This document shows, piece by piece, positions 1 through 36,600 of a DNA stretch of 64,000 bases. How positions within the stretch are numbered: position 1 is the stretch's first letter; each line of letters starts with the position of its first letter. The stretch spans positions 345,599 through 409,598 of the forward strand of contig QPMI01000058.1 in assembly GCA_004431415.1 (NCBI GenBank). Direction: 5' to 3'. The position numbers and the translations under genes are program-made. The notes below the pieces were generated by a model. It was given only the letters and a program-made list of their open reading frames with translations, did no database searches and was not told the origin of the DNA. The stretch comes from Cyanophora paradoxa CCMP329 (lineage: Eukaryota > Plantae > Glaucophyta).

Positions 1-132
1 GGCATCACTTCGCTCGTCAATCAGAAACACAGATAGTGAGTTTCATCCGTTTGATCGCAGTTTTGCTTAATTTCACTTCGCGAATGCGCTTGGCTTGTCT
101 GTCGACTTTTTTCTGTTCCTTATTTAAAACAA

Positions 133-740
133 ATGCCTTCGGCTTCTAGAAAACTTACAAACTCACCCAATAAAAGAATAATATTGAATTTTTGAGCGGT
201 GATACTGAATCTTATCCTTTAGTTCGTCGGACTGCTGGTGGTGAGGGAGCATCTATCGATTTTGCTCTTACTGCTGACGAAAACGCTATTCTAGATAAGA
301 TCCCAAATTCGCGGACAAAGAAAAGCAAAACTAGTAAACTGAAGGATACTGACGATGGTCCGCTGTATGTATCAGAGACTGGTAATCGTAGCAGATATTT
401 CATAAAAACAGTGACTGGGTTGAAAACAATTTCAAAGAAGCGTGCTGGTGATCTTATTGCTGGTATAGCGGTTGAGACTAAAATGGAAAACAAGATTTTA
501 AACGAACCGATTGTTAAGACCAAAATTGAAAAAAAGCTTTCTCCTCCATCATCTGCTGTTCCTGCTAAGACGATCGTCGCAATCCCCGAGGTGGATGAGA
601 ATGCTAGCGAATTACCTGTAGCAAACACATCGATCTTGCGCATCGCCTCTAGCAGCGCTGATCCTGTCGGGCCGTCGATCGAATACAAACCAATGTTAAG
701 TGGATTCACTAAACTTGGACTACGTCATCGGTGGGAATAA
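133..740 (+). CDS. Terminal hypothetical Lys/Ser/Pro-rich protein of element A (one probable frameshift near 170-190)
   Basis: ORF 192..740. An ATG at 133 follows the virus-type TTTAAAACAAATG context. Positionally equivalent to 21832..22167 in element B. Confidence 0.5.
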
Positions 741-744
741 TTAG

Positions 745-1208
745 CGTCTAGCTAGAACCTGAACTCGAGTATGTAATTAGATTCCGATGATATAGTAATT
801 CGAAATACACACAACTAACGTCTAGAATTGAGCTAAACGTGTTTCCTCTGTTAGCTTCATTGTACTCATTAATATCGTCTAGAATTGAGCTAAACATGTT
901 TTCTCTGTTAGATTCAAAGTACACAAAATTAACGTCTAGCTGTATCTGAAGATTATTCTGAGACCGGCGCTTTGGGGGTCCGCCTAAAATCACTGCTATA
1001 TCTTTTGCAAAATCGATCGGACTAGACGTTAGATACTACCTAGCGGTTGCTGGATGGTTGGTTTGGAGAGGTTGTGGTGGTAGACGTAACGAAGGGATGG
1101 AAGAGAATGTGTGTTGGAAGGCGTTGGAGTGTGTGGGTTGGGGTGGTTTGGAGGAGTGAGGGTGAGAAAGAGGTGGGTGGGCTGGAACCCCCACTATCTC
1201 ATTTTTTT
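745..1208. repeat. Putative right terminal inverted repeat of element A with ~57-bp iterons
   Basis: Tandem copies of CGTCTAGAATTGAGCTAAAC..CTCTGTTAG at ~820-940. Organisation parallels 22174-23339. The partner TIR would lie outside the window. Confidence 0.6.
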
Positions 1209-1286
1209 AGCGTTTAGCTCTATCTAGGCGATAATGATGAGTACATTGAAGCACTTCGTGTCCCAAGAGCGCTCTGGTGCGGCCTC
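1209..1286. repeat. Inner 78-bp remnant of the left TIR of element B
   Basis: Exact reverse complement of 22174-22251. Confidence 0.92.
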
Positions 1287-1434
1287 TGGAGAGAGTAACT
1301 TTTTACATTCACTGTAATTCCTAGCTTGCCATGAGCAGCACCAGTGACATGTTATAAAGGAATAGCACCGCCCTATAGTAACGAGCGGTTGGTTGCGCGC
1401 TTTCTCCGAAAATCTTTTGGAGCGCTATTGTTAA

Positions 1435-4400
1435 ATGGAACGACGGTTTGAGATCGCGCGGCTCAAAGAGCAGATAGCAGGCCAGGCCGAGGTTTTGTAC
1501 AATCGCAGGTTTATTCATGGACAATTTAGAAACAAACTACAGCGCATCAGTGCGAGTGGCTCACGTACGAGACTACCGACACTTCAGAAATACGCATCAC
1601 TTTTGAACGAGCTTTCAACAGTACCAAGACCGCCGAGACCAGTTTCAGCTGCTCGGCTAGAGGTTGCTATTGCTGAGGGTATTGTAGCAGGATTTTCAGA
1701 GCTTCCCGATCCGAGTGTGAGCGAGTTCAGCGAAACTGAAGTTACTGAGGAGGACGGCACAGTGACGACACGTACAGCGCTGAACGGGACATATGCTGAC
1801 TGGGAGTACAGGCCCTCACGTGGAACAGGCCGAGTCACGTCGATGCAGGCACAGATTGAAAATAATGCAAGATTCAGAGCAGGCGCAGTGGCATTTGTAA
1901 GCGTGCAGCAAGAATTAGCGAGTCAGGATCGAATGGGTATAGCTTTACAGGTATCAGGAGTCGGACTCTATCGCAAGCCTAACGAGGACTCAGCGCTTGC
2001 AGTAGTCATTGAGCACAGGAAATTTTACCGCATACTCCCAGGGTCAGACATTGTTGAGGCGATCCGCTCACAGCTGGAGGAGCTAGATACTATTGCGCAG
2101 GAAAAGAGCCGTGATTCTTCCGCCTTCGAGACGTGGATTAAGCTACGCTTTACCGCGATTAGATACTTCAGGCGTATGGGTGGCCGCGGACGCGGGTTTG
2201 TACTTCCGAGCTGGCTTGCACTCAAGCAGGCCTTGATCAATATCAATGCACCAAACAACGAGTGCTTTAAATATGCTGTCCTCGCAGCGCGCAATCCGCT
2301 GGCCCAGGGGTGGATTCGAGACATGCAGGAAGCTATCGGCAGCACGAGGCATCGCTAGATTGTACGATGCTAACGTATCCGACACCACTCGATTCGAAAA
2401 TGTTCAGTAAATTTGAGTGTGCGAATAATGTTAAGCTCTGCGTCTACACGACTGCGCTAGACAAGCAAGACATCGTTCCGATCCACATTAGCGCAGCAAC
2501 GGATGCTATACCGATACTTTACGTGCCAGCAGGCGACGGGAATGATGTGGGACATTATTTGTGGATAAAGAACATATCGCGCCTGTTTGGAAAGCATGGG
2601 TCGAATGCGAAGCACTATTGCTTGGCCTGCCAGTGCGGCTTTGGCTCAGACGAGGCCTTTCAGAATCATCTTAAATACGACCGGTGCCTTGATCGAGATG
2701 AGCACGCCAGGGACGTGCTTCCGAAAAAGGGCGAGCACTTTATAAAATTCAATAGTTTCGAAAAGACGATTCGCCAAAGACTAGTTGGGTATGCTGACTC
2801 GGAAACTATGACTGTACCTGTTTTACAGACCGAGAGTCCAGCAAAGACGAAGCAGCTAGGAGTCCACGCAATAGCGTCGATCGGCTGCTTAGTTATTCTA
2901 AACAAGGGCAAAATCAAGGAACGAATGAAACTGTAGAAAGCGTTGAAAATTCAGAGACGATGCAACAGGAGCAGTTTTGGTTCTCGCATATGGATCACAA
3001 ACTGAGGAGTCTGCAGAAGCATTTGTTGCTTGGCTAGATGAAAAAGAGCCGCAGTTTAAGGGAATCTTGGAGGAGAAAGCGACGATGCAGATTACACAGG
3101 CGCAAGAGCGCTCCTTTCAGGCAGCAGAAACATGCTATATGTGTGGAAGCGAGTTTAAAGAAGTCAAAGATAAAAATCGAGATCACTGCCACGACTCCGG
3201 GCAGTATCTTGGAGCGGCATGCAATGCCTGCAACAGGCGACGAGCAAAAGCTGCCGCCGTGCCAATATTCTTTCACAATGGACGAGGATTTGACTTTCAC
3301 CTATTAGTGAGGGCTTTAGCAGCAGGATATAACCGGCGGAAAGTCGCAGAAAATGCATTCCGAGACGAGGTCGAGCGCAAGTTTCAAGCAAAATACGCAG
3401 GACGTGAGCTGAGTACAGATCATGCAATAAATGCAAAGAAGCGACTTGAGCGTGAATTACGTCCTCGTGAGTTACTGTCGACGAAGTTTGACCAGGTGTT
3501 TCAGAACAGCGAGCGTATGTCACAGTTCACATACGGCATTTACGTTTTCCGTGACTCTGCTCAGCACCTGCAGGGTAGTCTCGATAGCCTTGCGGCTGCA
3601 GTACCTGATGTGAAAAAGAATATCACACGTGCACTACATGAGAGCGAGACACGGTTCAAACTAATGACGCGCAAGGGTGTCTATCCATACAAGTACATTA
3701 CGGGCTGGGATCGTCTTGCAGAGACATCACTACCAGGACGCCGCCAATTTTACAATGAGCTAAAACAGTTGAAGTGCTCTCGTGATGATTATATCCACGC
3801 TCAATCGGTCTGGCGTGAGCTTGGTTGCAGGACAATGGCTGACTATACATTGGAGTACATGAAGACAGACATAGCTCTTCTAGGAGACATATTTGAAAAC
3901 TACCGTGACACGTGTATGGAGACGTATAAGCTGGACCCAAGCTACGTTATGAGCATTCCAGGTTTCTCGTGGCAAGCAGCTTTGAAACACACTGGCCAGC
4001 AACTGGAGCTGTTTCACGAAGGGCAAGAAGATATGCACCGCTTTATTGAGAAAGGGATTCGGGGAGGAATCTCGATGATATCAACACGCTATGCTAGAGC
4101 TAATAATGCCTGGATTGATAAGTACATCGTGGGTCACAGGAAAAAACAGGGCTGGTTACTTTATCTCGATGCGAATAATCTTTATGGACTTTCTATGAAA
4201 CAGAAACTTCCTACAGGGACTTCAAATGGGAGAACATTAGTATTACTACTGATCCTAAACTGTATATCACAGACCTAGATGCAAACGGTCCACGAGGGTT
4301 TGCTTTGGAGGTTGACATGCATTGTCCAGAAGAGATGCATGATTATTTTAGTGATTATCCACTTGCTCCGAGCGTATGTGCATTGTAAAAGAGCACCTAT

Positions 4401-5472
4401 CAGAGGCGCAGCGAAAAACTATTGAGCGTGAAAAACTAAGCGGGATCGAGAGAACGCCAAAGCTGGTTCCAAACCTGTTGCCAAAGAAGAATTATGTTGT
4501 TGATGCACGAGTGCTACAGTTTTATGTGTCGATGGGAATGGTTGTTTCTAGAATACACAGAGTGCTTTCGTTCGAGCAAAGTGCATGGCTAGAGAGCTAT
4601 ATCGATTTGAACACTCTGAAGCGAAAACAGGCAGAATTCCCGTATGAAAAAGATCTTTATAAGCTACTAAATAATGCGGTGTTTGGGAAAACGATGGAAA
4701 ACGTACGCAAGCACTGCAATTCAGAGCTTGTGACAACAGGAGAACGACTAGCGAAAATCAACACAGAGCCGAACCGCTTGAGACAGGTCGCTATCTATGA
4801 CGAAAACTTGGTGTATGTAAATAAGCGAAAGAGCGAATACAAACTCAACAAACCGATCTACTGTGGGTTCACAATCCTTGATCTATCAAAGCTACATATG
4901 TATCGGTTTTACTACCAGGTGCTGAAAGCGCTTTGGGGCGAGCGGCTTAAGCTACTTGGAACAGATACAGACAGTCTCATTATTCAGATTGAGACCGAAA
5001 ATTTATACGAGGACCTTCGCAAAATCAAAAACGAGCTAGATGTTAGTGAATACCCTACGAGTCACCCGTTCTTTGAAGGGATGTCAGAAGACGAAGTGCA
5101 GCGACTAAGATCGATGGGCAAGGTTCCAGGGCTGTTCAAGGACGAGTGTGGCGGCAGACAAATGCTTGAGTGGATCGCGAACCGACCGAAATCGTACTAT
5201 ATGAGCACAGAGGAATCACAAGTGCACAAGTGCAAGGGCGTTAACAAGACGTTCAGCAGCTCGCTGACACGAGAGCGATACTACGACTGCATCTTTGGGG
5301 CATATCATGCAACGTAGATGGAATTCTCGGCTTCAGATCGAAACAGCATCGGATCTGGCTACAGCGGACATCAAAGCAAGCCCTACACCCGCTTGATACC
5401 AAGCGATTCCTGTGCGAGGATGGTGTGAACACCAGGGCGATAGGTCACTATAAAAATCTTTCGAATAACTAA
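1435..5472 (+). CDS. polB: Protein-primed family B DNA polymerase (Polinton type) with endonuclease VII-like insert, split by about 5 frameshifts
   Basis: ORFs 1435..2358, 2310..2936, 2977..4278, 4376..5317 plus a tail to TAA 5470-5472. Motifs: NECFKYAV, GHYLWIKNISRL, YADSET (ExoI), RDHCHDSGQYLGAACNACN, FHNGRGFDFHLL (ExoII), RKGVYPY, RGGIS, YLDANNLYG (A), KLLNNAVFGKTMEN (B), TDTDS (C), KCKGV, DTKR..DG..T.AIGHY. Confidence 0.95.
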
Positions 5473-6401
5473 TGGCACCCTCATTCAAAATCACTGCACC
5501 ACCAGGGGCATATCAAGTCGACATACTTTTCATAGGACGTTTTCGACTATTTGCAGCGATTGAGATTGCAACTCGATTCGCAGTTGTCAGAAAGCTTGAA
5601 GATGCTAAACAGATTCCGAAATTCATCGCTCAGCTGCCTGGGATCTGGGGTTTTTCGGGCGACAACGGCTTTAATACGGCTGCTGTGCGGGCAATGGCCG
5701 AAGAGAATTCATTTTCGATGCACACTGACGTCGCTAAGGATGATCACATATCGAAAGGCGACAAGCTAGGGATCATCGATCGATTCGCACGGACATTGCG
5801 AGCCATGATTCAGGCAGACACAGAGGAACGAGGGTCGCCGAATTTTCTCTCCCGGCTGCCTGCTTTGATCAAGGCATACAATCAAACAAAACACAGCTCT
5901 TTTGGCAGAGAGTATTCACCAGCCTGGATGCGAGATCACCCACAGGTTGCTGCCCAGCTGCACCAGGTGCGTCAACGACAGAACGACATTGAGAGAGACG
6001 CATTGAATCTACCAAAGCCAGGGACTGAGGTGCAGATACTCGAGCCTAAGAGCAGCATCTTTGCGAAGGGAGCTACGAAACCGAGCAAGGAGACGTACAC
6101 AGTCGTGGGGCAGGACAGGAACCGAATAAGGGTCGCAACCAAAGAGGGACAGATATTAAGCCGTAGAATCAAGCCTTCAGAAATTCGAGCCCCGAGACAG
6201 CTTCCGAATCAGTCAAAAATAGAACGAGCTGCGGCTAAGGCAAAGCAAGAGCAACAGCTACGGCGCGAGGGTCTCATTGAAACGAAAAAGTATAGCGGAC
6301 AAAGTCGGCAAGCTCGTGAGCTCAAAAAACTAGAGGTTGCAGGGGAGCCTTCACTGCGATTAGGAAGTAAGGTCGCTGGAAACTATGCCCGCCGCAATTA
6401 G
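5472..6401 (+). CDS. Retroviral-type (rve) integrase of the virus
   Basis: YQVDILF (D1), FSGDNGFN (D2), GIIDRFARTLR (at the usual ERFNRTLK position), YNQTKHSS, SH3-like C-terminal part. Intact 309-aa ORF. Confidence 0.85.
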   Translation: MAPSFKITAPPGAYQVDILFIGRFRLFAAIEIATRFAVVRKLEDAKQIPKFIAQLPGIWGFSGDNGFNTAAVRAMAEENSFSMHTDVAKDDHISKGDKLGIIDRFARTLRAMIQADTEERGSPNFLSRLPALIKAYNQTKHSSFGREYSPAWMRDHPQVAAQLHQVRQRQNDIERDALNLPKPGTEVQILEPKSSIFAKGATKPSKETYTVVGQDRNRIRVATKEGQILSRRIKPSEIRAPRQLPNQSKIERAAAKAKQEQQLRREGLIETKKYSGQSRQARELKKLEVAGEPSLRLGSKVAGNYARRN

Positions 6402-7625: not shown

Positions 7626-8366
7626 TTAAGATAATATTTTAAAACGCCTTTTTTTAGAGATAACAGGTAATTCTTTTTTAGACTCTTCTTCTTGTTTTAG
7701 CCATTTAGAGAAACGAAAACTCTTATCTTCGACGGCTTTATCAACGTACCAGGCAGTATCATATTTAGTTCCATCCAAAACTAAGCACTGATAATCGTGC
7801 GCCCAAGTCTCGAACAAGGCGATGAACTTATCCTTTGGTAGGTGTGAAAAGTCTCGATAAATTGCCTCCAGTTCAGTATGATTAGAGTAACTGAAGAAAA
7901 AACAATAGTCGGAGTTCGATCTTATAGATTGACTCAATGCTGTAAGCTTTTGCGACATTAAAATCGTAGAAATGCAAAAATGGCGGCACTGCATAAAAAG
8001 TCGATTAACAACCTTGCTGTTTCGAAGATCAACAGTTTCAGATGCAGCAACAAGATCGTCCAATACAAGTAATATCTGCGGCGCTTTCTTTTTGTTTTCG
8101 ATTAGAGCGCGCTGTGAATCAATGATTTCTGCAACAATGGCAGGTTGAAAATCATCGTAAAGCTCTTTTGTTATTGCTTCGTATTCACCATTGAATTTGG
8201 TGGCCGTAAACACAACCACTCGATTAATCTTTGGATATAGCAGTCGAAGCAGATGCTTTGTGCAATAGAACGATTTGCCACTATTAGATTTCGATATAAA
8301 CAGGGCTTTAAAAGGGACCCTCATATCGCTAGGCTGGAACTTTGCGAGCTCTTGAGACCCATCCAT
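7626..8366 (-). CDS. A32-like (FtsK/HerA superfamily) genome packaging ATPase
   Basis: Walker A-like SKSNSGKS, Walker B LLVLDD, CRH motif, ILMSQ..L...IRSN. Confidence 0.92.
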   Translation of the reverse strand: MDGSQELAKFQPSDMRVPFKALFISKSNSGKSFYCTKHLLRLLYPKINRVVVFTATKFNGEYEAITKELYDDFQPAIVAEIIDSQRALIENKKKAPQILLVLDDLVAASETVDLRNSKVVNRLFMQCRHFCISTILMSQKLTALSQSIRSNSDYCFFFSYSNHTELEAIYRDFSHLPKDKFIALFETWAHDYQCLVLDGTKYDTAWYVDKAVEDKSFRFSKWLKQEEESKKELPVISKKRRFKILS

Positions 8367-8386
8367 CAAAAAGATAGTCGGTGAAA

Positions 8387-9774
8387 TTAGAGGTTCACCT
8401 TACGAAGACCCGCAGCATCAACAATTAGTACAGTGTGAAGGAGAGCTCGAACCTGGACGTAAATCTTGTTGTTTGCATCGTATGCAGCAGGGTTCATAAT
8501 ATTCAGGAAGCAGCTGCTGGAGTTCGTCAGATCTACGAAACCAGTTTGAGCAGCATTTCGAATCGATTTATCCCCACTAATGCAAAATGGCAAACCAGTC
8601 AGAACATACCGATTAAGAGGCGCGTCTAGATTGGAGCACTTGAAGACATCAGCGATGAGTTCGGCACCTTGCAGGAGAGGAACGGGCTCATTTGAATAAA
8701 GTCTCTGGCCATTCAATTCGCAGGAAATAGTAATATCGCGAGCATTAGCCTCGGTTTTGAGGACACTGTGTTTTCCATCAGTTTGGTTCATGTTTGGCTG
8801 CTTGCGAATGCTAACGAACAGGCCGTAGCAAAGTCCACTGATTTGAGACAGATTAATCCGGGTGGGCGCTCCCGCACCAGCATAAGTAATTGAATCAGCA
8901 TCAACCCAGCCGACATCGGTAGCGGGAATTGCGATTCCAGACGTTTTGACTTTCTCAATCACCTGGGCAAAAGTGGCCTCATCAACGTTGATGCAATGAG
9001 CAATAATCTTTGGATTCGAAAGCTCCGGATTGGCAGGGGTGACACTGAGAACATTGGGAGTTATATTCTGGCCGATGTTTGCAGGGGATGCAGCAGCAGC
9101 TCCCACGCTCCCAAGTCCATCTTCTTTAGAAGCATCACCGCCTATGGCATATTCTGTTACAAACCTACCACCATAGCTGGTTTCGACGAAGCCCTGGGCA
9201 CGATCACGGAACCAAACCTCGACGGAAACCTCGCCAGATAGAGCACCAATCGGAAGCACAGAACCCTCCCAGGGACAGGGGATTTTTACACTGAAAATAC
9301 CTCCAGTGCGATTGCTCCCCTGAGGTGGTGTTCCATGGAGCCAGCCACCGGATCGGTACTTCTTTTTAAGCTGAGCATCATCATTGTAAATCAGTGCGCT
9401 GTGAACAAGCCAGTCCTCGGGACAATGTAGCTGTAGGAAGCATATTTGATTTCGATTCGCTTTACGAGAGCACCAACCGATCGCAAATAACCAGTGCGAA
9501 CCAGGTCAGTGTCACCAGTAAATGCTGTCAGCTCGGGAAGGGTAAACTGGAGTTCGAGTCCCTGAAGGAAATTGTATCGGGGCAGGAAATAAGTAACCCT
9601 CTTTCCGAAGCAGTCTCCATAGTCATTGCTTGGGTTGACAACAACACGAACAGGCTTGGTTTGGCTCGTTAGACCTAACATAAGCTCGTTGTTCATGAAG
9701 AAGTCCTTCGCTTCCTGAGGTGTGGTGAGGAGCTCTTTGAGGCCGAGCCGCTGCAAATTCTGAGTAACATCCAT
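8387..9774 (-). CDS. Major capsid protein, double jelly-roll (frameshifted near 9260-9430)
   Basis: N-terminal FGKRVTYFLPRYNFLQGLELQFTLPEL resembles the NCLDV/PLV MCP start. Beta-rich ~460 aa, LPIGAL..V.VEV.F and G.VDL.N segments, adjacent to the ATPase. Confidence 0.75.
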
Positions 9775-9825
9775 CGAAGTATATAATTGCAGTGAAAGAA
9801 AATAATTCTGCCGCTTCACCAAGAC

Positions 9826-12206: not shown

Positions 12207-13680
12207 TGTAACGTCCCCGGAAATCAAGCCGGAATGCATTCACATTTATAAATTCGTTTGTTATAATTTGCACATAGTTATATACCTGTGGGGTGATCAA
12301 ATGCGAGTCACTATGCATTAGATCGAAGCCTGCCATTGTTGGGTTCGCAGCAAGCACATTTGCTAGGACCGTATTTTCAAAAAGCCTCCCATCTTGGACA
12401 TATCCTAAGTTGGTCAGAATGCTGAAATTAAATAGGACTCCGGCAGCAAAAGCTGGCCCATACATAATGATTTGATGTAGCTCAAAAGGCTTTGTAAATT
12501 CGACTCTGATCCAGGGATTAGGTAGAGTGCCACCTTGGAACCCTGTTGAGTTGGGTCGCACATGAGAAGGTGGGTGCAATTCCTCAAAGTCGTTGCTTAT
12601 GATGTTTGCATCTGGAATTATAAACCAGTTGACATCAAATGGCGGCTCAACTGTTAAAGTTGACGATATGATTAGTCTGTCATCGTTCAGTAGGTCATAG
12701 TTCGCCAATAGAAAGCTGCAGAGCGCATTTATTTTAGCATTTATTTCGATTTGTTTCAGCCATAAATCTGTTGTAGAAATCAAATAAGAAATATTCGATG
12801 GGGAGGCATCATCAAGCTTGCTCATGACTGCAGCTGGCAGAGGAACACTTAAACGCCAGTATCTAGTTAGATTCCTATCTGCATCAACTGGAAGCAGTTC
12901 CTGCATTTGAAAGTGCGATTCCAGCTCGCTACCAGCCATTAGCATAGAAATGATTGGGCTGCCTGAGAGGGATAGGATCCAGCCCAGTGCGCCCCAGCCT
13001 GACGTCTCCGAATTCGAAAAGCCTGCAGTCAATTGCTCACTGGCTTGGACTTCACCACAGCTAATGCTCACAAGAACAATTGGATCTTCTGCATCGTAAA
13101 TTTTACTGGCGTGGCTGAGTGCAGCAACTGAGGGATTATTCAAACAGGCAATTGCCCGTCAACAAGGTTTTTGTCCCTAGAACCTTCGGTGGAAAGAATG
13201 TAGGTGCTGCTGAAGATGCTCTCACTGCATCACGAATCAGCGTGCTTGAATATGGCCCATCCTTCGTAAAAACTACTGGCTGCATCCGAACTGTATCAAA
13301 CGCTGTAATTAATACGTCTTTTGTCGATTCTGCAATTGTGTAGTCCAGGGCAACGTCTGTAAGCACCGACTCCAGAGGATTTGCATCATAGCGGCTTCCT
13401 GAGAGCAAGCTTGTGAGTGATCTCGGATTTGCAAATATTGTTGGCAGGTTCGTTTGATATAGACTCAAGATATCACCTGCAGAATATCGGTAAGCAAGAA
13501 CAGAGCCTGGAGCTGATGGGATCGCCAATCCGGCCGCTATTATTGCCCTGTTGAGGTGCCTGCAAAGAAATCAAACAGCTGTGGTATTGCTTTCCCAGTA
13601 ATCGCCTCAATCCGTTGTAGAATTCGGGCTATGACTATTCCACGAGCACCTCCACCTGATAGTGAGAGAATGACCTTCAT
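12199..13680 (-). CDS. Patatin-like phospholipase with C-terminal beta-sandwich-like extension (frameshifted)
   Basis: ILSLSGGGARG oxyanion motif, FDFFAGTSTG (GxSxG), ASSAAPTFFP, VDG...NNP across the frameshift at ~13150. C-terminal PNPWIRVEF...FRLDFRG. Confidence 0.88.
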
Positions 13681-13703: not shown

Positions 13704-16700
13704 ATGTCCTACATCTTGAAGAAGCCAGTGCCACTTCGTAGATCTCCAGATTTCGTTGATGATCGACTCATAAATATTCGCGTATTTGGAAGCATCTTGG
13801 CAGACTTCAATGCTGATCGTGACATCCACAGGACCGAGTTTAGTCGACCAGCTGCATTAATTCTGCGGAACTCTCACGTTGGTGCCCCAGATATTGCACA
13901 GAGATTCTGTCTTGGTCCCACTGAGAACTTTGTTGCTGAAATTATTGGGTCCAGGGCGTTGCCACGACACCTGCGAATTGCCTCCTCAGGCACAGTCTCC
14001 AAGTATGATTCTGGTAGATTGATATTTAGGCTCCAAAATGATAGAGGGGTCCATACATCAGCTCTACGTCTAATTGATGAATCAAATGATGTCGCAAACA
14101 AAACTGCGGCTCAAATCACTGGGCGAATTCTCCTTGGCGAAGATGCTGCAATATCAGTGCTTGCATCACAAATTCAGCCGTTCCCCTGGGATCTACTATA
14201 TACCGATGCACGAGAAGCAAATCTTCTTTCGGGTTTGATGTAAATCAAATCGATACCGAGCCAGCCACCAGGTTCGATATTCCTGGATGCACCTTCGGCT
14301 CTATCTTGATTGAGGCTGACAGGCACCTGCTCCGGCATTGCATGATAGATATGACCTAGGGCTTCGCACCAGGCAGTGGAGAAATATTCATGGAACTAAT
14401 ATTTATCAGGATGGTAAGAAGGTTAGCACTGAAGAGCAGGTTATCAACATTTTCAACTACTACTTCGGACCTATTGTCCCTATACCACCTCTTCCAGGGT
14501 TACCAAAGCCGCCAATCCCGGATGGACCTGGTCGAGAGCGAGTTGCTGATGAGACAGTTCCTTTCGGTCAACATATTGTCAGTTGGGAGCAAGTTCGCAA
14601 TAAACCTATCTTCGAACCGAAAAAACAAATAGATGAACAGTATTTACCTCCTGAAATCGATATATTAGAGCTTGATGATTACCAATTTGTCCCAGATGAG
14701 GAAGAGTTTTTACCTGACGGTTTCGACCCGCAAGAGTATGAGTATGATCAATACGACCCAAATGAGGAAGAGTATTTACCCGATGGTTTAGATCCACAAG
14801 AGTTTGAGTATGAACAGAATTATGAACCCCATGAGGAATATTTAGCAGATGGTCTCGAACCACCAGTTGTGGATTATGAGCAACCTTATGAACCCCATGA
14901 GGAGTTTTTACCAGATGGATTACAACCGGAGCTTTTTGAGTTCTTTCCAGATTGGGAACAGATCAACAACAAACCAGCGAGATATCCACCAGAGGATCAC
15001 AACCATGATTGGGATGAGATCTTGGGTAAACCTGAGAAATATCCACCTGAAGATCACAGGCATGATTGGGCGATATCGATGGAATTCCACCTGAGTTTCC
15101 GCCAGAAGACCATTTACATATTTGGAGCGAAATACGAGAGCAGCCCACTTTTGCATCAGCAGGAAATGTATTATTAGGAGATATTAACAATGGTGTGAGT
15201 CTCTACCAAAATATAAACACACCAGAAAGATTACAATTAAACGATTATTATGTGAATCGTCAGGGAATCGATGCAGGCACCACAATGGACGGTGAATTGT
15301 ATATTAGACCACCCACAAGGGATGTAATATTACCACTTGGTGGTGGAATTGAAATTAAAAATACAAAACCAGGAATCTACTTAACAAACTACTACCCGAT
15401 GATGTCCCGATGACAGCAGGATTTATTTCTCTACCATCTGATCCAGCAAACTATGATAACAAAGATGCAACAATACAAATTAATGTGACTAATGTAAGCG
15501 ATTTAGACGGATCAAGACCAAAATTAATATTTAGCCGTGAGCAACTCGCAGCAGAAACACTTTTAGGAGATCGCGATGATTATAAACAATGTGAGGTAGC
15601 ATGGATTAAAACAAATTATAATGGTGGAGTTCCTGAGGGTCTTTTAGAAATCAATCAGAGAGCCTCAGCGAAAAACATTCATAACGAAAATATTTCAAGA
15701 GTCGTAACAGAAGATTATTTTAGATGGGATAATATCCCTGACGCACCCGAAAAATTCCCACCCTCAGACCATGAACATGTTAAAGCAGATATTACGGATT
15801 TTGCACATACTCATGTCAAAGCCGATATTACAGATTTTGCCCACACTCACACAAAAGATCAAATAACAGATTTCGCACATGAACACGTCAAAGCCGATAT
15901 TACGGATTTCGCACATGAACACGTCAAAGCGGATATTACAGATTTCGCCCATACTCACACAAAAGCAGATATCTCAGACTTTGCCCATACTCATCTAAAA
16001 GCAGATATTACAGACTTTGCACATGCTCACACAAAAGCAGATATCACAGATTTTGCACACACCCACCTTAAAGCAGATATTACAGACTTTGCACATACTC
16101 ACCTAAAAGCAGATATTACAGATTTTGCACATACCCACACAAAAGTGGATATCTCAGATTTTGCACATAGGCACAATTGGGACGAAATAGACGAACAGCC
16201 AGTATTCGCACAATTGAATGCAATCGGAAACGTTTTTAATGGAGTCACACTTTACCAATCGATTAATACACCTGAAAGGCTATTTTTGAATGATCATTAT
16301 GTTAGTCTCAATGGGTCGTTTACAGGTCAAGACGGCACACCGATGGTGGGAACTCTTGCAGTAAGATTACCCAGGGATCCAATCGTAAATGGAGTGTATA
16401 GTGGTGATTTTAATGTAGGAGTAAATGATACTTTCCCCAGTATCTATGTCACGAATTATCACCCGGGTGAAACAGGACAAGTAGCGGATTTTTCAGCAGC
16501 GATACAAGTAAATGTAACAGATCAAAGTGCATATGATGGAGCAAGACCTAAGATAGTATTCACAAGGAGAAAGTTGTAAACTATCTTCCTGTTGCAGGAC
16601 AACCCACAGATGATCACGGAAAATGTGAGATGGCGTGGATTAAGACAACATCAGGAGGCGCCTTAGAAGTCAATCAGAGAATGGCGGCAAAAAACTTACA

Positions 16701-19695
16701 CAATACCACCCTTTCCGGTGTTGTTACAGATGATTACCTTACCAATAAAGGATATCTCACGTCGGCGGATTTAAGCAGTTATGCAACCGATGCAGAATTA
16801 GCGGCGGCACTTGCGAATTATCTACCTCTTACAGGTGGAACCGTCACCGGAACCGTTAACGCTACCACATTACAAATTGGTGGAACCACAATACCGAAAG
16901 GTTATGAATTTGACCAATTAGATGTGGTTTCGACAGATAGAAGCGCAAATAATTGGACTGTTAATTGGACAGGTCATAGAACGGGACTAACCGGATGTTA
17001 TACGACACCTGAGAATGACGCAGATGTTACGGGTTGTTGGATGCGTTGGACAATTCCAGAAGGTATGAAATCGTTTTATATTCAACTTTTACTGTGGCAT
17101 AATTGTCGATATTTCGATATTTACGGGCAAACTGTAAATGGACATCAACATTTCCTAAGACGAATAAATAACTATCAAGGACTTCAGGATGTTGCAGTTC
17201 AAGATGGAACATACCCAGCTATAATATTTACTTCAGTAAACTGCGAATTTTACAGTAAAATATATGTTCAAGGGCGAAAAGGTCGCATTTATTTTACGGG
17301 TGTGTTTGGTTGGAGTCGTCAGAGAGCAACCGATAATGATGTAGGATTAGTGCATTATGATAATATCGCTTTTAATCCTGTTGGCAAATATTCCGATTTT
17401 GATGTAGTGACCGCTTGGAATGATGCAAGTATAGCTATGGTCGGAAGTTGGCAAACCAATTGGAAACCTACAACAGATAACCCAGTAGCAGGATTTTATA
17501 GCAATCAAGAAGGTGACACAAGCGGTAGTGACTATGTGCAAGCAGCAGTGCCGGCAGGAATGAAAACATGTCACATTCAGTATTTATGTTGGACGAATGG
17601 GCGATATTTCGATATTCAGGGATACCGCAACAGTCGATGGAATCATATTATGAGAGTGAATACTTACCAGAATGTAATAAACACAGCCGATACATTATGG
17701 CATGACGGTTTATTATGGACTTCTGTATTTTGTGGGAATTTTACACATATTAGAGTTGTTGCAAGAAAAGGGCGTTGTTATGTTGGATATTTTGCATGGA
17801 CGAAAGAAGTAGGAAGAACAGCACCAGCGAATGGTATGATTAGTTGGGATAATGTTTATAGCAAACCGTCATTTTATTCAGCCGCAGACCTTCCAGGAAC
17901 AGCAACATGGATTACAAACACTTGGTTAAAATCAACAGATAACATAGAGCGAATATGGTTTGGAAATGGTAATACGACATATATTCGAGGTTATGGAAAT
18001 AGTGATGGGGTTTCAATTGAATTCAGAAACTCAGCAGATGGAGCAATTTTAAAATCTTATAACAATGGAAACCTTTGGGTAAACAACACTTTGACAGTTC
18101 CGACAATAAGCGCTACCACCATTGGTGCAACAACAATAGATGTTGCAACATTAAAAAGAAATGGTTATGACGTTCCGAAATGTTACGGTTTTGATGACGC
18201 CGTAGCAGGTGCCGCTTATCATTCATCGGGCGGAACTTGGACAGTTGGTTATGGGACACCTTGGGATCCAGGATATAATTATGGTAGTTATGTGTATAAC
18301 AGTGAAGCCGATGATACAGCTTCTACAACTACATGGATTCAATATACAATACCCACAGCAATGGTTAATGGGACAGCATTCCTTACACATTTACCATGGA
18401 ATTCTTGCCGTTACTTTGAAATTTGGGGAGTCCGTAGTAATGGAGCAACTGTATTTATTACGAGAGTTAATAACTATCACCCTTATAATAGCGATTCCGA
18501 CGGTCACCACAACGGGTTAAATAATGTCCCTATTTTCCTTGCGGGTCGATTTACTCACATCCGTATTTATCCGAGAGTTGGAAGAGTTCATATTATGGGT
18601 ATTGGTTTCACACATGATCGTGCACATAGTAGTTCATATGGTGGTCACACCGGTTACATTTCTTGGGATAACATTTATAGTAAGCCAAATCTACTTACAC
18701 CGAGTTTAGTTGGAAACATTACAGGTTTTGATACTTGGAGTGGAACAGGTAGTGGTGGTCTATCATTTAGCGGATCTTGGGTATCAGGTTGGACGGCTAC
18801 TAATGATAATCCTGTGGACGGATTTTATAGCAGTATTGAAGGAGAAACGACGAGTAGTGATTGGGCGCAAATCGAAAAACCAGCAAATATGAAAACATGT
18901 CACGTTCAATACTTGTGTTGGACGAATTGCAGATATTTCGACATTGGAGGTTATCGATCGGGTCGATGGTTCCACATTATGCGTGTAAACACTTACCAGG
19001 CTATCTCAAATTATGGAACCTCTGATTATCACGATGGGTTGGCGTGGGCTTCCTTTGCTTGTGATAACTTTTCACATGTTAGATTTGTTGCAAGAAAAGG
19101 GAGATGTCACATTGGTATGGTTGGATGGACGAAAGAAAAAGGAAGAACAGCACCAGCAAATGGTATGATCAGTTGGGATAATGTTTATAGTAAAGATGCT
19201 CGCACCACATGGGCTACCGGAACTTGGATAACATCAGATGAAGGTAATGGGAGAGTTTATTTCGGTTCATCATCGACTACATACATTAAAGGTTACGGTT
19301 ACGAAATGATCCATTTTAGAAATGCAGTTGATATAACAATGCAAGCTTTTTATAATGATGGTAACGCTTACTTTTGGGGATGGCTTACACAAGGAAGTGA
19401 TAGAAGATACAAAACCGACATTAAAAATATAACCGGCGCCCTTTCAGCAATCGAGAAATTACAGGGTGTGAGTTATAAAAAGATTGGTGATGAAAAACAA
19501 AAAGTTAATTTAGGTCTGATTGCGCAAGATGTCGAAAAAGTCATACCAGAAGTAGTAGGTAAAAATCATGAAAATTATTTAACCCTTGCATACACGGGTT
19601 TAATTCCAGTTCTCATAGAAGCCGTTAAAGAATTATCCCAGAAATGCAAGAGTTTACAAGATCAAATAGACCAATGGCGCAGTCAGGCTGCTTAA
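13704..19695 (+). CDS. Large modular fibre/spike protein (one frameshifted gene of ~2000 aa, or 2-3 genes) ending in a peptidase S74-type intramolecular chaperone
   Basis: Consecutive ORFs 13704, 14338, 15066, 15410, 16630. HxH repeats, YLPLTGGTVTG fibre motif, four repeated Trp/Tyr-rich beta modules, GSDRRYKTDI...LGLIAQDVEKVIPEVV...Y.GLIP.LIEAVKEL from ~19396. Confidence 0.8.
14698..14945 (+). repeat. Four ~66-bp coding repeats (acidic EE[FY]LPDG.DPQE.EY motif)
   Basis: Visible in ORF 14338..15177. Confidence 0.8.
15770..16165 (+). repeat. 11 x 36-bp coding tandem repeat, HxHxKADITDFA (phage tail repeat-like)
   Basis: Eleven contiguous in-frame units with synonymous variation. Confidence 0.93.
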
Positions 19696-20035: not shown

Positions 20036-20091
20036 TGGTAGTTTGGCTTGTCTGCCGACTTTTTTTTCTTTCCTTCTTAGTAAAATAAGCA

Positions 20092-22173: not shown

Positions 22174-23339
22174 GAGGCCGCACCAGAGCGCTCTTGGGAC
22201 ACGAAGTGCTTCAATGTACTCATCATTATCGCCTAGATAGAGCTAAACGCTTTTCCTCTGGTTGCTTCAATGTTCTCATCATTTCGCCTAAAATTAACCT
22301 AAACGTGCTTCCTCTGTTAGCTTCATCGTACTCATCTATATCGCCTAGACTATTCTGATCCGTTTCTCTGCAGACCGCGCTCATGGGGGCAGCGCTCCTC
22401 TTCGTCTATTCTTCTTCACAGCACTGTCCTAAATAGACATGAGCTATTGCTAGGCTCTGACCTAGGGAATCGGATTGTAGACGTTGCTGGATCGGTGGGG
22501 TAGACGTATATGGTGAAATTACTAATGAAACGCTGGAGGTATACACTTGAAACGCATGGAATCGGCGGCTATGGAGCGAAGCGAAATTGCCCGGGTGTGA
22601 GGTCCATGCGTATACAACAATCGACACATCTCCAGAGGCCACAGCAGACCGCTCCCGTCCTTACGTGCGGCTATAGCTTAACGCTTTTTCCTCGTTTAGC
22701 TTCTCTGTACACATCAATTACATCTAGCTAGAGCTTAACACGTTTCCTCGTTTAGCTTCTCTGTACTCATTAATATCGTCTAGACTATTCTGATCCGTTT
22801 CTCTGCAGACCGCGCTCATAGGGGGCAGCGCTCCTCTGCGTCTCTTCTTTTTGTCAGCTCTGCCCTGAATAGTCGTTAGATATTGCTAGGCTCTGACCTA
22901 GGGAATCGGATAGTAGACGTTGCTGGATCGGTGGGGTAGACGTATATGGTGAAATTACTAATGAATCGCTGGAGGTATACACTTGAAACGCATGGAATCG
23001 TCGGCTATGGAGCGAAGCGAAATTGCCCGGGTGTGAGGTCCATGCGTATACAACAATCGACACATCTCCAGAGGCCACAGCAGACCGCTCTGGGGGCAGC
23101 GCTCCTCTTCGCCTATTCTTGTTGTCTCCTCTGCCTTGTATAGTCGTCAGATATTGCTAGGCTTCGACCTAGGGAATCGGATAGTAGACGTAACAAGAGA
23201 GCGGGGTAGACGTAACGAGAGAGCGGGGTTGGAGTGATAGCGGGGTGGACGCTAGGGCTGGTGCAGCGAGAGAGGTGGTGATGGGATGGGGGTGGCGGAG
23301 AGGGGTGGGCCACCGCGGTGGGCTCTCTCTCGTTTTTTT
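22174..23339. repeat. Right terminal inverted repeat of element B (~1.17 kb) with iterons and an internal ~310-bp direct duplication
   Basis: First 78 bp are inverted relative to 1209-1286. 22346-22654 is repeated at 22781-23090. Ends in CCACCGCGGTGG palindrome, CTCTCTCTCG, T7. The full extent as a TIR is inferred. Confidence 0.75.
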
Positions 23340-26300
23340 ATCTCGCGCCGACATCGAACACGTTAAGTACATCCTCGAAAACCCGGACGCGCCCGAGCCC
23401 AGCGGCAGCCCAGAGCATGTGAAGCGGGTGAAGAATTGGCGCGAGTTCATGAGGGGGAAGTACACGCTGCGCGAGGTTCCAGATCCGACAGACAACCTGA
23501 CAGCGGAGGAGCTCGCCATGCCCAACCCGCGGCCAAGGCGCAAGCTTCGGCTGGTGGTGGAGAAGCAGGTTGACAACCGCTTGAAGCGAGGAAATTCGGG
23601 CGACGCCCCCCACTGGGCAGGGAGCTGGTGTGTGACGAGGACATTTTCATCTGCATCCAGGTGCGATCGCGGTACAACGCAATTCTCTGCGCACGCGCAA
23701 CGCATCTTCAACGCAAGCGTTGGGTTGCTAGCGTTGGACATTCTCAACACATGCGTTGACCATGCGTTGAACAGAATACATTTTAATTTTTATGTCCACT
23801 GCATTGCACTGTTTGTGACGCGGTCATGATCGTGCGCAGCGCGAACACCTTGAGAGCGGGCACAAAGGTGGCACCGGTGTATACAACAATGCGAAGCAAA
23901 GGTACGCGATTCCTCGCTACCTGGTCCGCATCTACGTCAAGATTTGGTGAGTTTTCTGTCCACCGACAAACCAATCGTGACTAAGACTCACCTGCGGTCG
24001 TGGGATGGGCTGCAGTCCAGTCTGCAAGCTCAAGAACAAGAGGAGGCAGCCCGACGGGATCCTCCATCCAATCAAGGTGATTGGTTTCTGGGATCGGGCA
24101 ATTGTCAACTTCTTTGAGATGCCCAAGGCATGGGGCCCCTGCCCCCGCATGGTGAGATGTTGTTATTGATGCGCCTGGCCGCGTGTTAAAATTTACCTGG
24201 GAGTTGCAGGAGTGGCTGCCGGGTGGAAGTGGAATGAGAGCTCAGGCGAGCTCGAGAGGGTCTGGTACTGGGAGCAAGCAGTGCACGTGTGCCGGTACGA
24301 GAAGAAAATCCCGGATCCCGAATTTCCGGGCTGCTACAAGACGGACTTTGTCACGGACGTCATTCCGCGATTCTGGGCATTTGTCCTGGCCATAAAGGTC
24401 AGTTTTCGGCACGGTCATGCGCAGATTTCTGCATCCGGTAACGAACAACGGCGAACGCAGGACCACTACACTCGTTTCCTCATCTTGGAGGCTTGCGAAT
24501 CAAAGTGCGCAGGCGAAGTTGCTGATCGTCTTCGCGAGAAATTTGCCTACTTCGGCGCATGCACAATCCTGTCCTGCGACAACGGATCGGAGTTCAAGAA
24601 TGATGTGAAATTCCCCGATATCTCTTGTAAACTTCAATATTAATTATGTTAACGGAGTATGGCAGATCATGAAGGTCCTTATGGCGGCCTACCCGAACTC
24701 GTCCATCGCCTACGGGAAACCGTACACTCCAGAGCACCAGGGCTCTGTGGAGCGTGCGAACAGGGACTCGAAGCCGACGCTCGCGGCTATTTGCTACGAA
24801 CGCCGGAACCAGAATGCGGAGGACTGGGCGAACTGGGCCCTAGCCATTCCCGATGTATTTAAAATCCTTTCCATACCCCATTTGAAAATTCCAAGTGCAC
24901 TGATCGATGCTGGATTCTCAGGCAATGGAGTCCCACAACAGCATGAAGTTCGCGAACGGCACAAGATGACACCCATCGAGGCCATGACCGGGCGCAGACC
25001 TTCACGAAGGCCTTTGGGAATTGAGCCACCGTCGGATCCGACAAGGCCGTACACCGAGAAGGACATTGAGGACCTCCTCGGAGTGCGCAACGGAATGTCT
25101 GCGCATCCCAACGCATGCGTTGGTAATTGTGTTGTCAGGTTGCAAACATGGAGGAAGTGAACAGAGTGTGCGATGACATGGCGAAGTACGAAGAAGATAT
25201 CGCCAACGCTCTTCTGCAGAGGGCGGAGAGCCCGCTCTTGAAGGATATCCCGGTGTTCTACGTAGTAAGTGCCGTCAATTCATTGCAAATTTTGTCGCAC
25301 TCTCATCCAACGCATTCTCAACGCATGCGTTGGACAGATCGATCAGTTTGTGCGTGCATTCGGGAATGTCCAGGCATGCGCACGGCTTGCCGTGTACAGA
25401 GACCAGATGAAGGCGTGCGCGGAGAAGCAGGGAGCAGGTCCTGTTATCTACAGTATCGGGATCGTGTGGCCGTCCTTGTCAAACAGCTCGGCATGCACGT
25501 CCTCCTACAAGCAAGGGTACCTGGGATCGTCACAGAAGTGGTGGACGTCCCGCATGGCCTCTACACGATCAGGACGATGGCGGGTTTCATTGACACTCCC
25601 ATTCAGGGAGCACAATTGATCAACATGAACCTCGTGGGCGGTACGTGCAGGGTAGTCCCATTTGCACGAATGTTGCACACTCATCAAAAAACTGGTGCAG
25701 GTATGCAGACAATCTGGAAGACAATTGAGGAGAACCGTGCGAACAACATAATGAACGGCACCGTTCCTCTCATGACAGCATTCAAGAGCTTCTGTGGCCA
25801 GGCCCCGGTCTCGACGTGGACCCGTGCAAGTGCAGGATGGCTGCCCTCAGCGTGTCGTGCGTTTTGCGGGCGCCGCCCCCGCACTTCTGCATCCGCGAGA
25901 GAGCGTGAGCTCGAAATATAAACTTAAATTCTAGCTCGATGTCATAACTGAAATTAAGGGACGGCACCTTCAGAAACAGCCAGGCTCGTGGGCATGTCTC
26001 CGGAGTGTACTCCCCCCCCGATCCCTCGATCGGCTCGTCCCACAGTAGCCGCACGACGTCCCGTGCCGTGTTGCAGTCCCCAGTGCCGCGCTTGCCATCC
26101 GTGTCCTCCTTCAGGTAGTTCGCGCCTGTCGCCGCCCTCTTCTTTGCTCGAGGTTCACCTGCAGAGGCGAGCACAGCTCCGACGGATGTCTGGACCTGCA
26201 AGCGCAACACCTCCACGAGCGAACTCAGCTGCGCCGAGTCCGACGAAGTCGCCGCCTGAACCGGCTGGGGCGCCGGCGCTGCAGCTGCGTGCTGCGCCTT

Positions 26301-26418
26301 GCCGCGCTTCATGAGCTTCACAAGTTCGGGGTCGGTGTTGCTGTCGCCGTCCTCGTGCGCTGGCTGCATGTCCCGCCGCACGACGTAGAAGAAACATCCG
26401 GGACTGAGCTTCGGCAGC
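23340..26418 (+). pseudogene. Virus-interrupted near-identical copy of 34142-37224 (Ginger/KRBA2-like integrase plus 3' part of the convergent gene)
   Basis: Direct sequence match, with differences mostly in homopolymer lengths. Confidence 0.9.
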
Positions 26419-27345
26419 CTCGGGGCCGGGGAGGGCGGAGGCGGCGAGCTCCTCGCGGAGGCGCGCCTCCTCCTGCAGCAGCTCCCGGTCCGTCTCCAGC
26501 TCCTCCACCTGGCCCCGCCCCCCGTCAGACCGCGGCCCGCCCCGCCCCGCCTGTCCCCTCGGGGTTCGGAGCGGGAGCCGAGCTCTAGAGCCGCTGGGCC
26601 GAACGAGGCTCGACCCGGGGGCGCCGAGCCTCGGCACTCGAATCCTCTGGCCTTGGGCGGCGCCCCGCCCCGCCCCGCCCGTGCCCGCCCGGCTCCTCCG
26701 GCCTCGGGTGACGCGCCTTGAGCTTGAGGGCCTCGAGCTCCTGGAGCAGCGCCTCGGCCTTCTCCTCCGCCAGCTCCTTCTCCACCGCCGCCCCTTCCGC
26801 CACCTGCGTCCAGCCCAACGCCTCAGCGCTCTGCTTCACGCGGTTTCCATTGCTTCGGAGAGGGGCCGCGGGGGGGGGGGAGGGGGGGGGGGGTTGCGCC
26901 TAGAGCGAGAAGCTACGCTTAGAGATGCGCGGCTGCCTCGCGGGCCCGACTCGAGAACTCGAGGAATCGTGAGCTTGCTAGCGGGGCGCACTCCTGGGCC
27001 TCGGCGAGGGCCCGGCGGGCCTCGGCGAGCTGAGCCTCGACGTCGCGCGCCGACGAGTCCCTCGCGCGCCGCTCCCCCGCCGCCGCCTCGAACCGCGCCG
27101 CCGCCTCTGCCCGATGCACGGGCACGTGGGCGGGGCGGGGTGGGGTTGGGTTGGGGAGGGTTTTTTTTGGGGGGGGGTTGGGGGGGGGAGAATCGCGAAC
27201 CCTGGAGGCGCCGTTCGAGCTCGGCGGTCTTCTCGCGCGCGGCCGCCGCCGCCGCCTCCGACTCTGCGCGCAAACGGGGCCGCGTGAGGGGCGGAGAGGG
27301 CAGCGGACGCGCGGGGATTCGAACCGGCGATCTGGACGGCGAACT
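26417..27345 (-). pseudogene. Duplicated internal fragment of the dynactin-like gene (copy of 42822-43760)
   Basis: Direct match including introns, e.g. the AAVEKELAEEKAEALLQELEALKLK exon. Confidence 0.9.
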
Positions 27346-33664: not shown

Positions 33665-36600
33665 ATGCCCAGCAACGCAGCAGCGGCATCGTCATCGCAA
33701 TCGAGCAACCAACAGCAGTCAGCACCATCGAGCGGCCAGCAGGCGCCGTCCACCTCGAGCGGACAGGCGGCGAGTTCGAGCAGTAAGCCGCGTAATCGAA
33801 ATTAAAGCGGCCAAATACTAGTGAACCGCCGCGGCCGCGCGGGCGCCCTCGGAAGCAGCCACCAGCACCTGCAGCTGTGGGCGCAGATGGCGCAGCAGCT
33901 TCAGAATCACAGCCAGCAGAGGCAGCGGCTTCGAGCTCGAGCTCGAGCAGCAACAACAAAAGAAGGGCTCGGCCGCAGCAGCCGGCAAGCGCATCGACAC
34001 CACCGAATTTCGCCACCGAGTCCAGCGGATGTTCGCCGAATCCCGAGGCGCTGAACCGGTCCCAGCAGCATCAGTGCAGCGCGTAACTTTCGAAGAATAT
34101 CGAGCCGCTATACAGCGTGTGAAGCCCGGAGCGGTGCTGCTATCTCGCGCCGACATCGAACACGTTAAGTACATCCTCGAAAACCCGGACGCGCCCGAGC
34201 CCAGCGGCAGCCCAGAGCATGTGAAGCGGGTGAAGAATTGGCGCGAGTTCATGAGGGGGAAGTACACGCTGCGCGAGGTTCCAGATCCGACAGACAACCT
34301 GACAGCGGAGGAGCTCGCCATGCCCAACCCGCGGCCAAGGCGCAAGCTTCGGCTGGTGGTGGAGAAGCAGGTTGACAACCGCTTGAAGCGAGGAAATTCG
34401 GGCGACGCCCCCCCACTGGGCAGGGAGCTGGTGTGTGACGAGGACATTTTCATCTGCATCCAGGTGCGATCGCGGTACAACGCAATTCTCTGCGCACGCG
34501 CAACGCATCTTCAACGCAAGCGTTGGGTTGCTAGCGTTGGACATTCTCAACACATGCGTTGACCATGCGTTGAACAGAATACATTTTAATTTTTATGTCC
34601 ACTGCATTGCACTGTTTGTGACGCGGTCATGATCGTGCGCAGCGCGAACACCTTGAGAGCGGGCACAAAGGTGGCACCGGTGTATACAACAATGCGAAGC
34701 AAAGGTACGCGATTCCTCGCTACCTGGTCCGCATCTACGTCAAGATTTGGTGAGTTTTCTGTCCACCGACAAACCAATCGTGACTAAGACTCACCTGCGG
34801 TCGTGGGATGGGGCTGCAGTCCAGTCTGCAAGCTCAAGAACAAGAGGAGGCAGCCCGACGGGATCCTCCATCCAATCAAGGTGATTGGTTTCTGGGATCG
34901 GGCAATTGTCAACTTCTTTGAGATGCCCAAGGCATGGGGCCCCTGCCCCGCATGGTGAGATGTTGTTATTGATGCGCCTGGCCGCGTGTTAAAATTTACC
35001 TGGGAGTTGCAGGAGTGGCTGCCGGGGTGGAAGTGGAATGAGAGCTCAGGCGAGCTCGAGAGGGTCTGGTACTGGGAGCAAGCAGTGCACGTGTGCCGGT
35101 ACGAGAAGAAAATCCCGGATCCCGAATTTCCGGGCTGCTACAAGACGGACTTTGTCACGGACGTCATTCCGCGATTCTGGGCATTTGTCCTGGCCATAAA
35201 GGTCAGTTTTCGGCACGGTCATGCGCAGATTTCTGCATCCGGTAACGAACAACGGCGAACGCAGGACCACTACACTCGTTTCCTCATCTTGGAGGCTTGC
35301 GAATCAAAGTGCGCAGGCGAAGTTGCTGATCGTCTTCGCGAGAAATTTGCCTACTTCGGCGCATGCACAATCCTGTCCTGCGACAACGGATCGGAGTTCA
35401 AGAATGATGTGAAATTCCCGATATCTCTTGTAAACTTCAATATTAATTATGTTAACGGAGTATGGCAGATCATGAAGGTCCTTATGGCGGCCTACCCGAA
35501 CTCGTCCATCGCCTACGGGAAACCGTACACTCCAGAGCACCAGGCTCTGTGGAGCGTGCGAACAGGGACTCGAAGCCGACGCTCGCGGCTATTTGCTACG
35601 AACGCCGGAACCAGAATGCGGAGGACTGGGCGAACTGGGCCCTAGCCATTCCCGATGTATTTAAAATCCTTTCCATACCCCATTTGAAAATTCCAAGTGC
35701 ACTGATCGATGCTGGATTCTCAGGCAATGGAGTCCCACAACAGCATGAAGTTCGCGAACGGGCACAAGATGACACCCATCGAGGCCATGACCGGGCGCAG
35801 ACCTTCACGAAGGCCTTTGGGAATTGAGCCACCGTCGGATCCGACAAGGCCGTACACCGAGAAGGACATTGAGGACCTCCTCGGAGTGCGCAACGGAATG
35901 TCTGCGCATCCCAACGCATGCGTTGGTAATTGTGTTGTCAGGTTGCAAACATGGAGGAAGTGAACAGAGTGTGCGATGACATGGCGAAGTACGAAGAAGA
36001 TATCGCCAACGCTCTTCTGCAGAGGGCGGAGAGCCCGCTCTTGAAGGATATCCCGGTGTTCTACGTAGTAAGTGCCGTCAATTCATTGCAAATTTTGTCG
36101 CACTCTCATCCAACGCATTCTCAACGCATGCGTTGGACAGATCGATCAGTTTGTGCGTGCATTCGGGAATGTCCAGGCATGCGCACGGCTTGCCGTGTAC
36201 AGAGACCAGATGAAGGCGTGCGCGGAGAAGCAGGGAGCAGGTCCTGTTATCTACAGTATCGGGGATCGTGTGGCCGTCCTTGTCAAACAGCTCGGCATGC
36301 ACGTCCTCCTACAAGCAAGGGTACCTGGGATCGTCACAGAAGTGGTGGACGTCCCGCATGGCCTCTACACGATCAGGACGATGGCGGGTTTCATTGACAC
36401 TCCCATTCAGGGAGCACAATTGATCAACATGAACCTCGTGGGCGGTACGTGCAGGGGTAGTCCCATTTGCACGAATGTTGCACACTCATCAAAAAACTGG
36501 TGCAGGTATGCAGACAATCTGGAAGACAATTGAGGAGAACCGTGCGAACAACATAATGAACGGCACCGTTCCTCTCATGACAGCATTCAAGAGCTTCTGT

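Follow-up and report, generated by a model that had tools for sequence, protein, structure and literature searches.

The window analysed here, a stretch of 64,000 nucleotides from a contig of Cyanophora paradoxa CCMP329, contains an integrated viral element, B, together with the right end of a second element, A, on its left side and host DNA on its right. B spans 1209-23338 of the window and has a size of ~21 kb, or about 23.2 kb if intact, which places it within the 15-40 kb Polinton-like range, and it carries terminal inverted repeats (TIRs), represented in the window by a 1165-bp right copy and 78 bp of the left one. The complete right TIR (22174-23338, + strand) contains 56-bp repeats at 22207-22349 and 22670-22783, and its terminus at 23338 reads ...CTCTCTCG-T6; the end of B consists of this T6 plus one T that is also present in the empty host site, and B therefore ends at 23338 or 23339. 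The TIRs make up 10% of intact B and the repeats within them 2.4%, and the GC content of B is 38-50% compared to ~66% in the host part of the window. The right TIR also displayed an internal 420-bp duplication (22238-22654 vs 22672-23090, 88%), each unit of which begins with the 56-bp repeats, and a 22-bp tandem repeat at 23184-23229. Scanning viral contigs with the TIR repeat motif yielded no match, and Rfam had no match in the window.

The coding content of B was examined with a Pfam scan that covered 28 open reading frames (ORFs) at a cut-off of E 0.01. A protein-primed DNA polymerase B (pPolB) lies in pieces at 1435-5317 (+ strand), with PF03175 matching 2977-4275 (E 4e-9) and with homopolymer indels relative to contigs, and is followed at 5472-6401 (+) by an rve-type integrase, which reached an Atlas score of 0.96 to an rve cluster composed mostly of Preplasmiviricota and has 12 relatives at 27-33% identity. 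This integrase gave no Pfam match at E 0.01 and nothing meaningful in a sequence search against the PDB, and its assignment is a lead by features. The minus strand carries an A32-type packaging ATPase (7626-8369; PF04665, E 1.6e-8) and the major capsid protein (MCP) in two frames (8387-9822), the latter being 60-75% identical to the Cyanophora paradoxa protein P0001. The model of P0001 is of low confidence (pLDDT 45.9); its top Foldseek matches were the PBCV-1 and iridovirus MCPs (E 2.5e-11), and its comparison with the faustovirus MCP gave a VIA Z of 13.9 (rmsd 4.1, 150 aligned). Judged on this low-confidence model of its homolog, the B capsid is predicted to be a double jelly-roll MCP. The MCP lineage was found to be sparse: of 1.84 billion representatives, six matched at E ≤ 0.001, one of which (P0003) is a 3989-aa protein matched in 28 short stretches, and no MCP relatives were confirmed in viral contigs (IMG/VR). 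The Pfam scan further placed a patatin at 13136-13528 (−), a PTR-repeat fibre at 15410-16579 (+) and a 1021-aa fibre with an S74 chaperone at 16630-19695 (+). The fibre region has coding repeats (66 bp and 36 bp; DITDFAH-type, PTR-like) at 14667-14927 and 15720-16211, and the S74 fibre gene contains an internal 410-bp duplication (17460-17865 vs 18789-19194, 72%). Among the 28 ORFs scanned in the window there was no Pfam match to a minor capsid protein or a maturation protease, two proteins that are expected for Polintons and virophages and not for all Polinton-like viruses (PLVs). Taken by its TIRs, size, MCP, A32 ATPase, pPolB and rve integrase, B is an rve/pPolB PLV.

B sits cleanly in a host repeat, an intact twin of which (34141-37227) shows the empty site, ...GCGGTGCTGC^TATCTCGCG, with TATCTC to the right of ^. 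The interrupted repeat occupies 23339-26421 (+) on the right of B, with a weak rve match below the Pfam cut-off, and its uninterrupted copy at 34117-37227 (+) matches it at 99.6% over 3090 nt from 34141. Within the interrupted copy there is a stretch with many CAACGCATGCGTTG-like palindromes. Near-identical host repeats (98-99.6%) adjoin one another in the window (23339-26421/34141-37227, 26417-27345/42822-43760 and 27348-27838/29996-30481), which suggests further nesting of host elements, and three GC-rich degenerate tandem arrays (51355-54481, 55724-57684 and 59276-60933, with units of ~120, 130-150 and 170 bp) had no Rfam match.

Element A and its right terminus

The right-end body of A (1-740, + strand) is multi-copy by contigs and depth, has ~42% GC and ends in an ORF of unassigned function, listed at 192-740 (+) with an upstream ATG at 132 in another frame; in the form listed, this ORF had no Pfam, homolog or Atlas match. 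It is followed by the right terminal repeat of A, placed by sequence comparison and contigs at 745-1208 (+) with an inner edge at ~709-745, which contains 2.5 copies of a 57-bp repeat (798-939, +) homologous to the 56-bp repeats of B and ends in CTATCTCA-T7. The contig sets examined came from four runs (X1, X2, X17 and X9), all of one organism, and 20 of 21 listed runs contain 55-75% of the words of window positions 1-3000. In three of the four runs the contigs of the A body end at 738, and an increase in depth is seen in the 701-800 bin; judging from these contig stops and the depth, the TIR of A probably starts slightly left of 745. The depth of the A body was ~13-16x that of single-copy flanks and that of the B body ~11-13x (GC bias may inflate both values), and one X1 contig (record 1) reaches at least 1 kb to the left of window base 1 with unchanged depth.

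Position 1208 marks the true end of a multi-copy family with insertions at many sites. In all four runs, contigs track A as far as 1207-1212 and from there diverge into different flanks (8 contigs in X1, 7 in X2, 4 in X17 and 7 in X9), and four A ends in X2 continue for ~364, 598, 846 and 2064 letters into unbroken DNA at a depth of 35-45, i.e., single-copy. The exact A end is present in ~9-12 copies by depth, with fewer flanks visible (in X17, a single flank of those listed has no more than one mismatch), and two fully readable flanks (19 nt each) found no match in the window even with as many as 3 mismatches allowed. Depth over 701-1200 lies above that of the A body, and at the terminus (1160-1208) it is only ~1-1.4x the body rather than 2x, with one A end present in the window; this low value may reflect GC bias, or the other end of A may differ. 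A 20-nt pattern of the A end also hit six loci in metagenome contigs, all six of which matched over only 20-22 nt and had no tblastx match, and these were discarded as chance.

The first-pass annotation had described 745-1208 as a diverged relative of the TIR of B, and the terminus at the join as matching the right terminus of B. The relationship stands for the 56-57-bp repeats: in right-TIR orientation, 816-925 matches 22227-22334 at 78% and 819-883 matches 22285-22349 at 86%, and the local score of 96 was reached by none of 1000 shuffles (best shuffle 27). It does not extend evenly over the TIR, as the middle part was not significant (199 of 1000 shuffles reached its score) and the terminal 150 bp were marginal (38 of 1000); the first-pass description is correct with this reservation. 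A and B also have in common a pre-ATG motif (90-132 vs 20043-20088, +; 83% over 46 nt) of the form TTGGCTTGTCTG..CGAC-T-run, located ~40-50 bp upstream of the ATG and with a weaker instance at 11753 (−), which is likely a candidate common viral promoter. On the strength of this sequence kinship we predict that A is likely a PLV related to B; 1.2 kb of A lies in the window, and within it no viral hallmark genes are in view.

The TIR of A varies among copies. In ~4 copies of the family, a T3-truncated end is linked back to the point where the 57-bp repeats begin (1202->799, seen in all four runs), which amounts to a 404-bp tandem duplication of the A TIR (window 799-1204), and contig variants of this TIR exceed the window copy by ~40 bases or fall short of it by 122. 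We considered the 1202->799 joint as a second integration of A into a TIR and rejected it, as four terminal T are missing and 2 bp of microhomology are present; it looks like an expansion of the TIR via tandem duplication, paralleling the internal 420-bp duplication of B.

The junction at 1208/1209

The two elements meet at 1208/1209. To the right of this point, 1209-1286 (−) forms with 22174-22251 a 78-nt inverted repeat of 100% identity (E 2e-35), the sole long perfect one in the window, and corresponds to the innermost 78 bp of B's left TIR. The reverse complement of the right TIR predicts ...CAGAGGAAA|AGCGTTTAGCTC across this position, and the window actually reads ...CTATCTCATTTTTTT|AGCGTTTAGCTC, with ...CTATCTCA-T7 leftward of 1209 in place of the predicted ...CAGAGGAAA. 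The remaining 1087 bp, which form the outer part of this TIR, had no meaningful same-strand match in 1-1208 (a single 21-nt match, E 0.56) and are missing from the window. The initial observation, that the left TIR of B is cut after 78 bp and abuts an end of A, is thus confirmed. The join falls on the precise A terminus, with a left-side microhomology of 0, and lies 15 bp into the second repeat of B (15 of 55 bp); by computation, a break placed at random in a 500-bp TIR, or a random chimera even when restricted to the TIR, would come within one base of its end ~0.6% of the time. A head-to-tail concatemer was ruled out, as the left end of B is not present at the join. The ratio of inner-TIR depth to B-body depth was 1.57, 2.12, 2.27 and 2.02 in the four runs, which indicates that other B copies mostly retain both TIRs and that the truncation is particular to the window copy and not a trait of the family.

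Contigs bridging 1208/1209 were found in none of the four runs, so that the junction is visible in the assembly alone, and depth at 1216-1227 was fully accounted for by the ordinary B-TIR contig (residual 0). The lack of a bridging contig, the presence of both families in more than 10 copies by depth, and indels at homopolymer runs between window and contigs, which resemble typical long-read consensus errors, would all fit an assembly artefact, in which two viral repeats, each present in many copies, were joined into a chimera. We nevertheless hold such an artefact to be distinctly improbable, because there is no shared sequence at 1208/1209 that could drive a misjoin and the join lies exactly on a biological terminus. 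The contigs, moreover, do not carry the window's letters: at 10 checked positions on both sides of the junction, these had none or almost no contig support in the covering runs, which means that the single copy at this locus is unrepresented, or that the contigs derive from another strain. Since the contigs also lack these locus-private alleles, the contig sets drop rare variants, and exact A ends outnumber visible flanks, the missing bridging contig is weak counter-evidence; on the other hand, two 41-letter connectors from the A end survive in X1 and X9, so that contigs of this type are not always lost. In A and near the start of B, several frame breaks fall at homopolymer indels relative to public contigs, and some of them are probably consensus errors. 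A methylation-decay signature in the private changes of this copy was rejected, as no CpG pattern was seen at 10 sites, and a C/A-rich consensus at the pooled loose ends of 1208-1209 was not taken as sequence, being a mixture of 2-5 unrelated contigs (agreement 0.47-0.58).

An identical junction sequence would also be produced by a fusion, in which an exact A end, from a neighbouring A or from a free linear A at a break, became attached to the TIR of B by deletion, end-joining, end capture or one-ended integrase attack, with loss of the outer 1087 bp and the host flank. These TIRs do rearrange, as the internal duplication in B, the 1202->799 joint and the contig variants of A illustrate. We regard this course of events as rather unlikely, since ordinary repair deletion rarely leaves the A end exact without microhomology, and since the only A flank that aligned through 1212 has a mismatch and then runs into other DNA, and is not clearly the parent allele for a fusion.

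A precise join without microhomology at a true terminus of A makes integration of A into the TIR of B the best reading, and an exact element end joined without homology is the product of an rve integrase. We therefore consider it likely that A was inserted by a retroviral-type integrase into the left TIR of an already integrated B, probably at an untargeted site. The integrase would have joined the end of A to the target strand, and we infer nesting in which the left end of A, a short target site duplication (TSD) starting AGCG.. and the other 1087 bp of the B TIR lie to the left of the window, with the host flank ...GCGGTGCTGC expected beyond that remainder. Protein-primed replication starts at the physical end of an element, and with the remainder of the TIR upstream this outer end of B, its replication start, would still be intact. 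The combined A+B unit would be far longer than the 23 kb of B and likely unpackageable, so that the window copy of B was probably immobilised rather than hijacked. As for the proposal that a related virus had integrated into an iteron of B's TIR, its support lies in the real terminus, the shared repeats and motif, and the precise join without microhomology; protein guidance to that site is the unsupported part. The junction probably reflects true nesting by insertion, a type of event already reported from other protists.

A possible target preference

The position of the join inside a repeat unit, when repeats constitute so little of B, could be taken to mean that a repeat-binding protein common to these viruses guides A to the 57-bp TIR repeats of its relatives, thereby building nested arrays. 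The existence of a second type of end-to-repeat joint in ~4 copies, and the lack of a visible flank at some of the ~9-12 exact A ends, which insertion into repeats would lead one to expect, point the same way. Full steering of this kind appears very improbable to us: a single event is at hand and the TIRs account for a tenth of B, at least four A ends in X2 enter 364-2064 letters of single-copy DNA, the window holds no match to either of the fully readable flanks, and the T3 joint, with its missing terminal bases and its microhomology, looks like tandem duplication and not integration. The earlier suggestion of guidance by shared TIR-binding proteins is accordingly unsupported, resting on one event while the readable A ends lie in unique non-TIR DNA. 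A weaker TIR bias may exist, via flanks that are not visible and enter repeats. In that form, in which the integrase of this virus group has a partial attraction to the 57-bp TIR repeats found in relatives, the flankless A ends, the junction and the ~4 joints would be traces of one virus targeting the terminal repeats of another, an idea to which we give a slim chance.

True TIR targeting is reportedly displayed by IS4321 and IS5075, which Partridge and Hall are said to have described in 2003 as targeting the TIRs of the Tn21 family. The behaviour of IS4321, in which most insertions go to one TIR target, was not observed for A, as at least four A ends lie in long unique DNA. These insertion sequences are the best precedent for such targeting, and parts of a later account describe bacterial elements with an RNA-guided DEDD transposase and one fixed target over nearly 900 insertions, whereas A occurs at many unrelated sites (PMC11187229). 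In the literature searched, the coverage of which leaves out most subscription papers, no report was found of a PLV that targets the TIRs of PLVs.

Relation to known nested elements

The stramenopile Halocafeteria seosinensis offers a close parallel in viral nesting. The portion of its study dealing with nesting reports 5 PLVs and 9 virophages that lie within other viral elements (bioRxiv 10.64898/2026.07.28.741278), and, as in our window, where A lies in B and B in a host repeat, TIR-flanked viruses are found there inside viral elements and host transposons. The section that describes this nesting is silent on TIR sites, whereas the site in the window is the TIR repeat of a related virus. In the Cafeteria EMALEs, 4 of 20 Ngaro insertions lie in TIRs, and the EMALEs themselves are described in parts of that paper as being without sequence-specific integration (PMC8547959); nesting terms gave 0 matches in two of its supplement files. 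Ngaro resembles A in being a mobile element inside an endogenous virus, and differs from it in being a tyrosine-recombinase retrotransposon that prefers EMALEs (PMC8547959, in the parts that treat these insertions), whereas A has TIRs and kinship with the element it entered, and no preference was seen for it.

B itself fits the rve PLVs and Maverick-Polinton viruses, which, in the parts of three papers that bear on them (PMC10120064, PMC12220804 and PMC12747079), are elements of 15-30 kb with TIRs, pPolB, rve-type integrase and A32 ATPase, and also with a double jelly-roll MCP, a GC content below that of the host, and fibre and patatin genes. What sets B apart from the rve PLVs of protists treated in those parts is an MCP with few relatives, and the nested inserts described there are retrotransposons and not viruses as here (PMC10120064, PMC12220804 and PMC12747079). 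A TSD of 5-6 bp is given for rve PLVs in sections of PMC12220804 and PMC12747079. A PLV of Cyanophora paradoxa is mentioned in a passage of PMC12220804, and the general PLV class is described in PMC10120064, the main text of which does not mention Cyanophora.

Nested PLVs are thus already in print, and targeting of TIRs by A is unsupported. If the likeliest reading is true, the locus would be a glaucophyte-associated example of virus-in-virus-in-transposon nesting, and would explain why elements such as the window copy of B are missed by TIR finders, as its 78-bp arm falls below the 100-bp filter stated in the relevant part of PMC12220804. The genome it points to has two related families with ~10 copies or more apiece, and preferences in integration are directly countable there. 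Only if such a count found enrichment in TIRs would this amount to a targeting rule for Polinton-type integrases and be of wider importance; if attraction to TIRs were real, endogenous Polinton-like viruses would be using it as a safe-harbour or competition strategy that limits itself.
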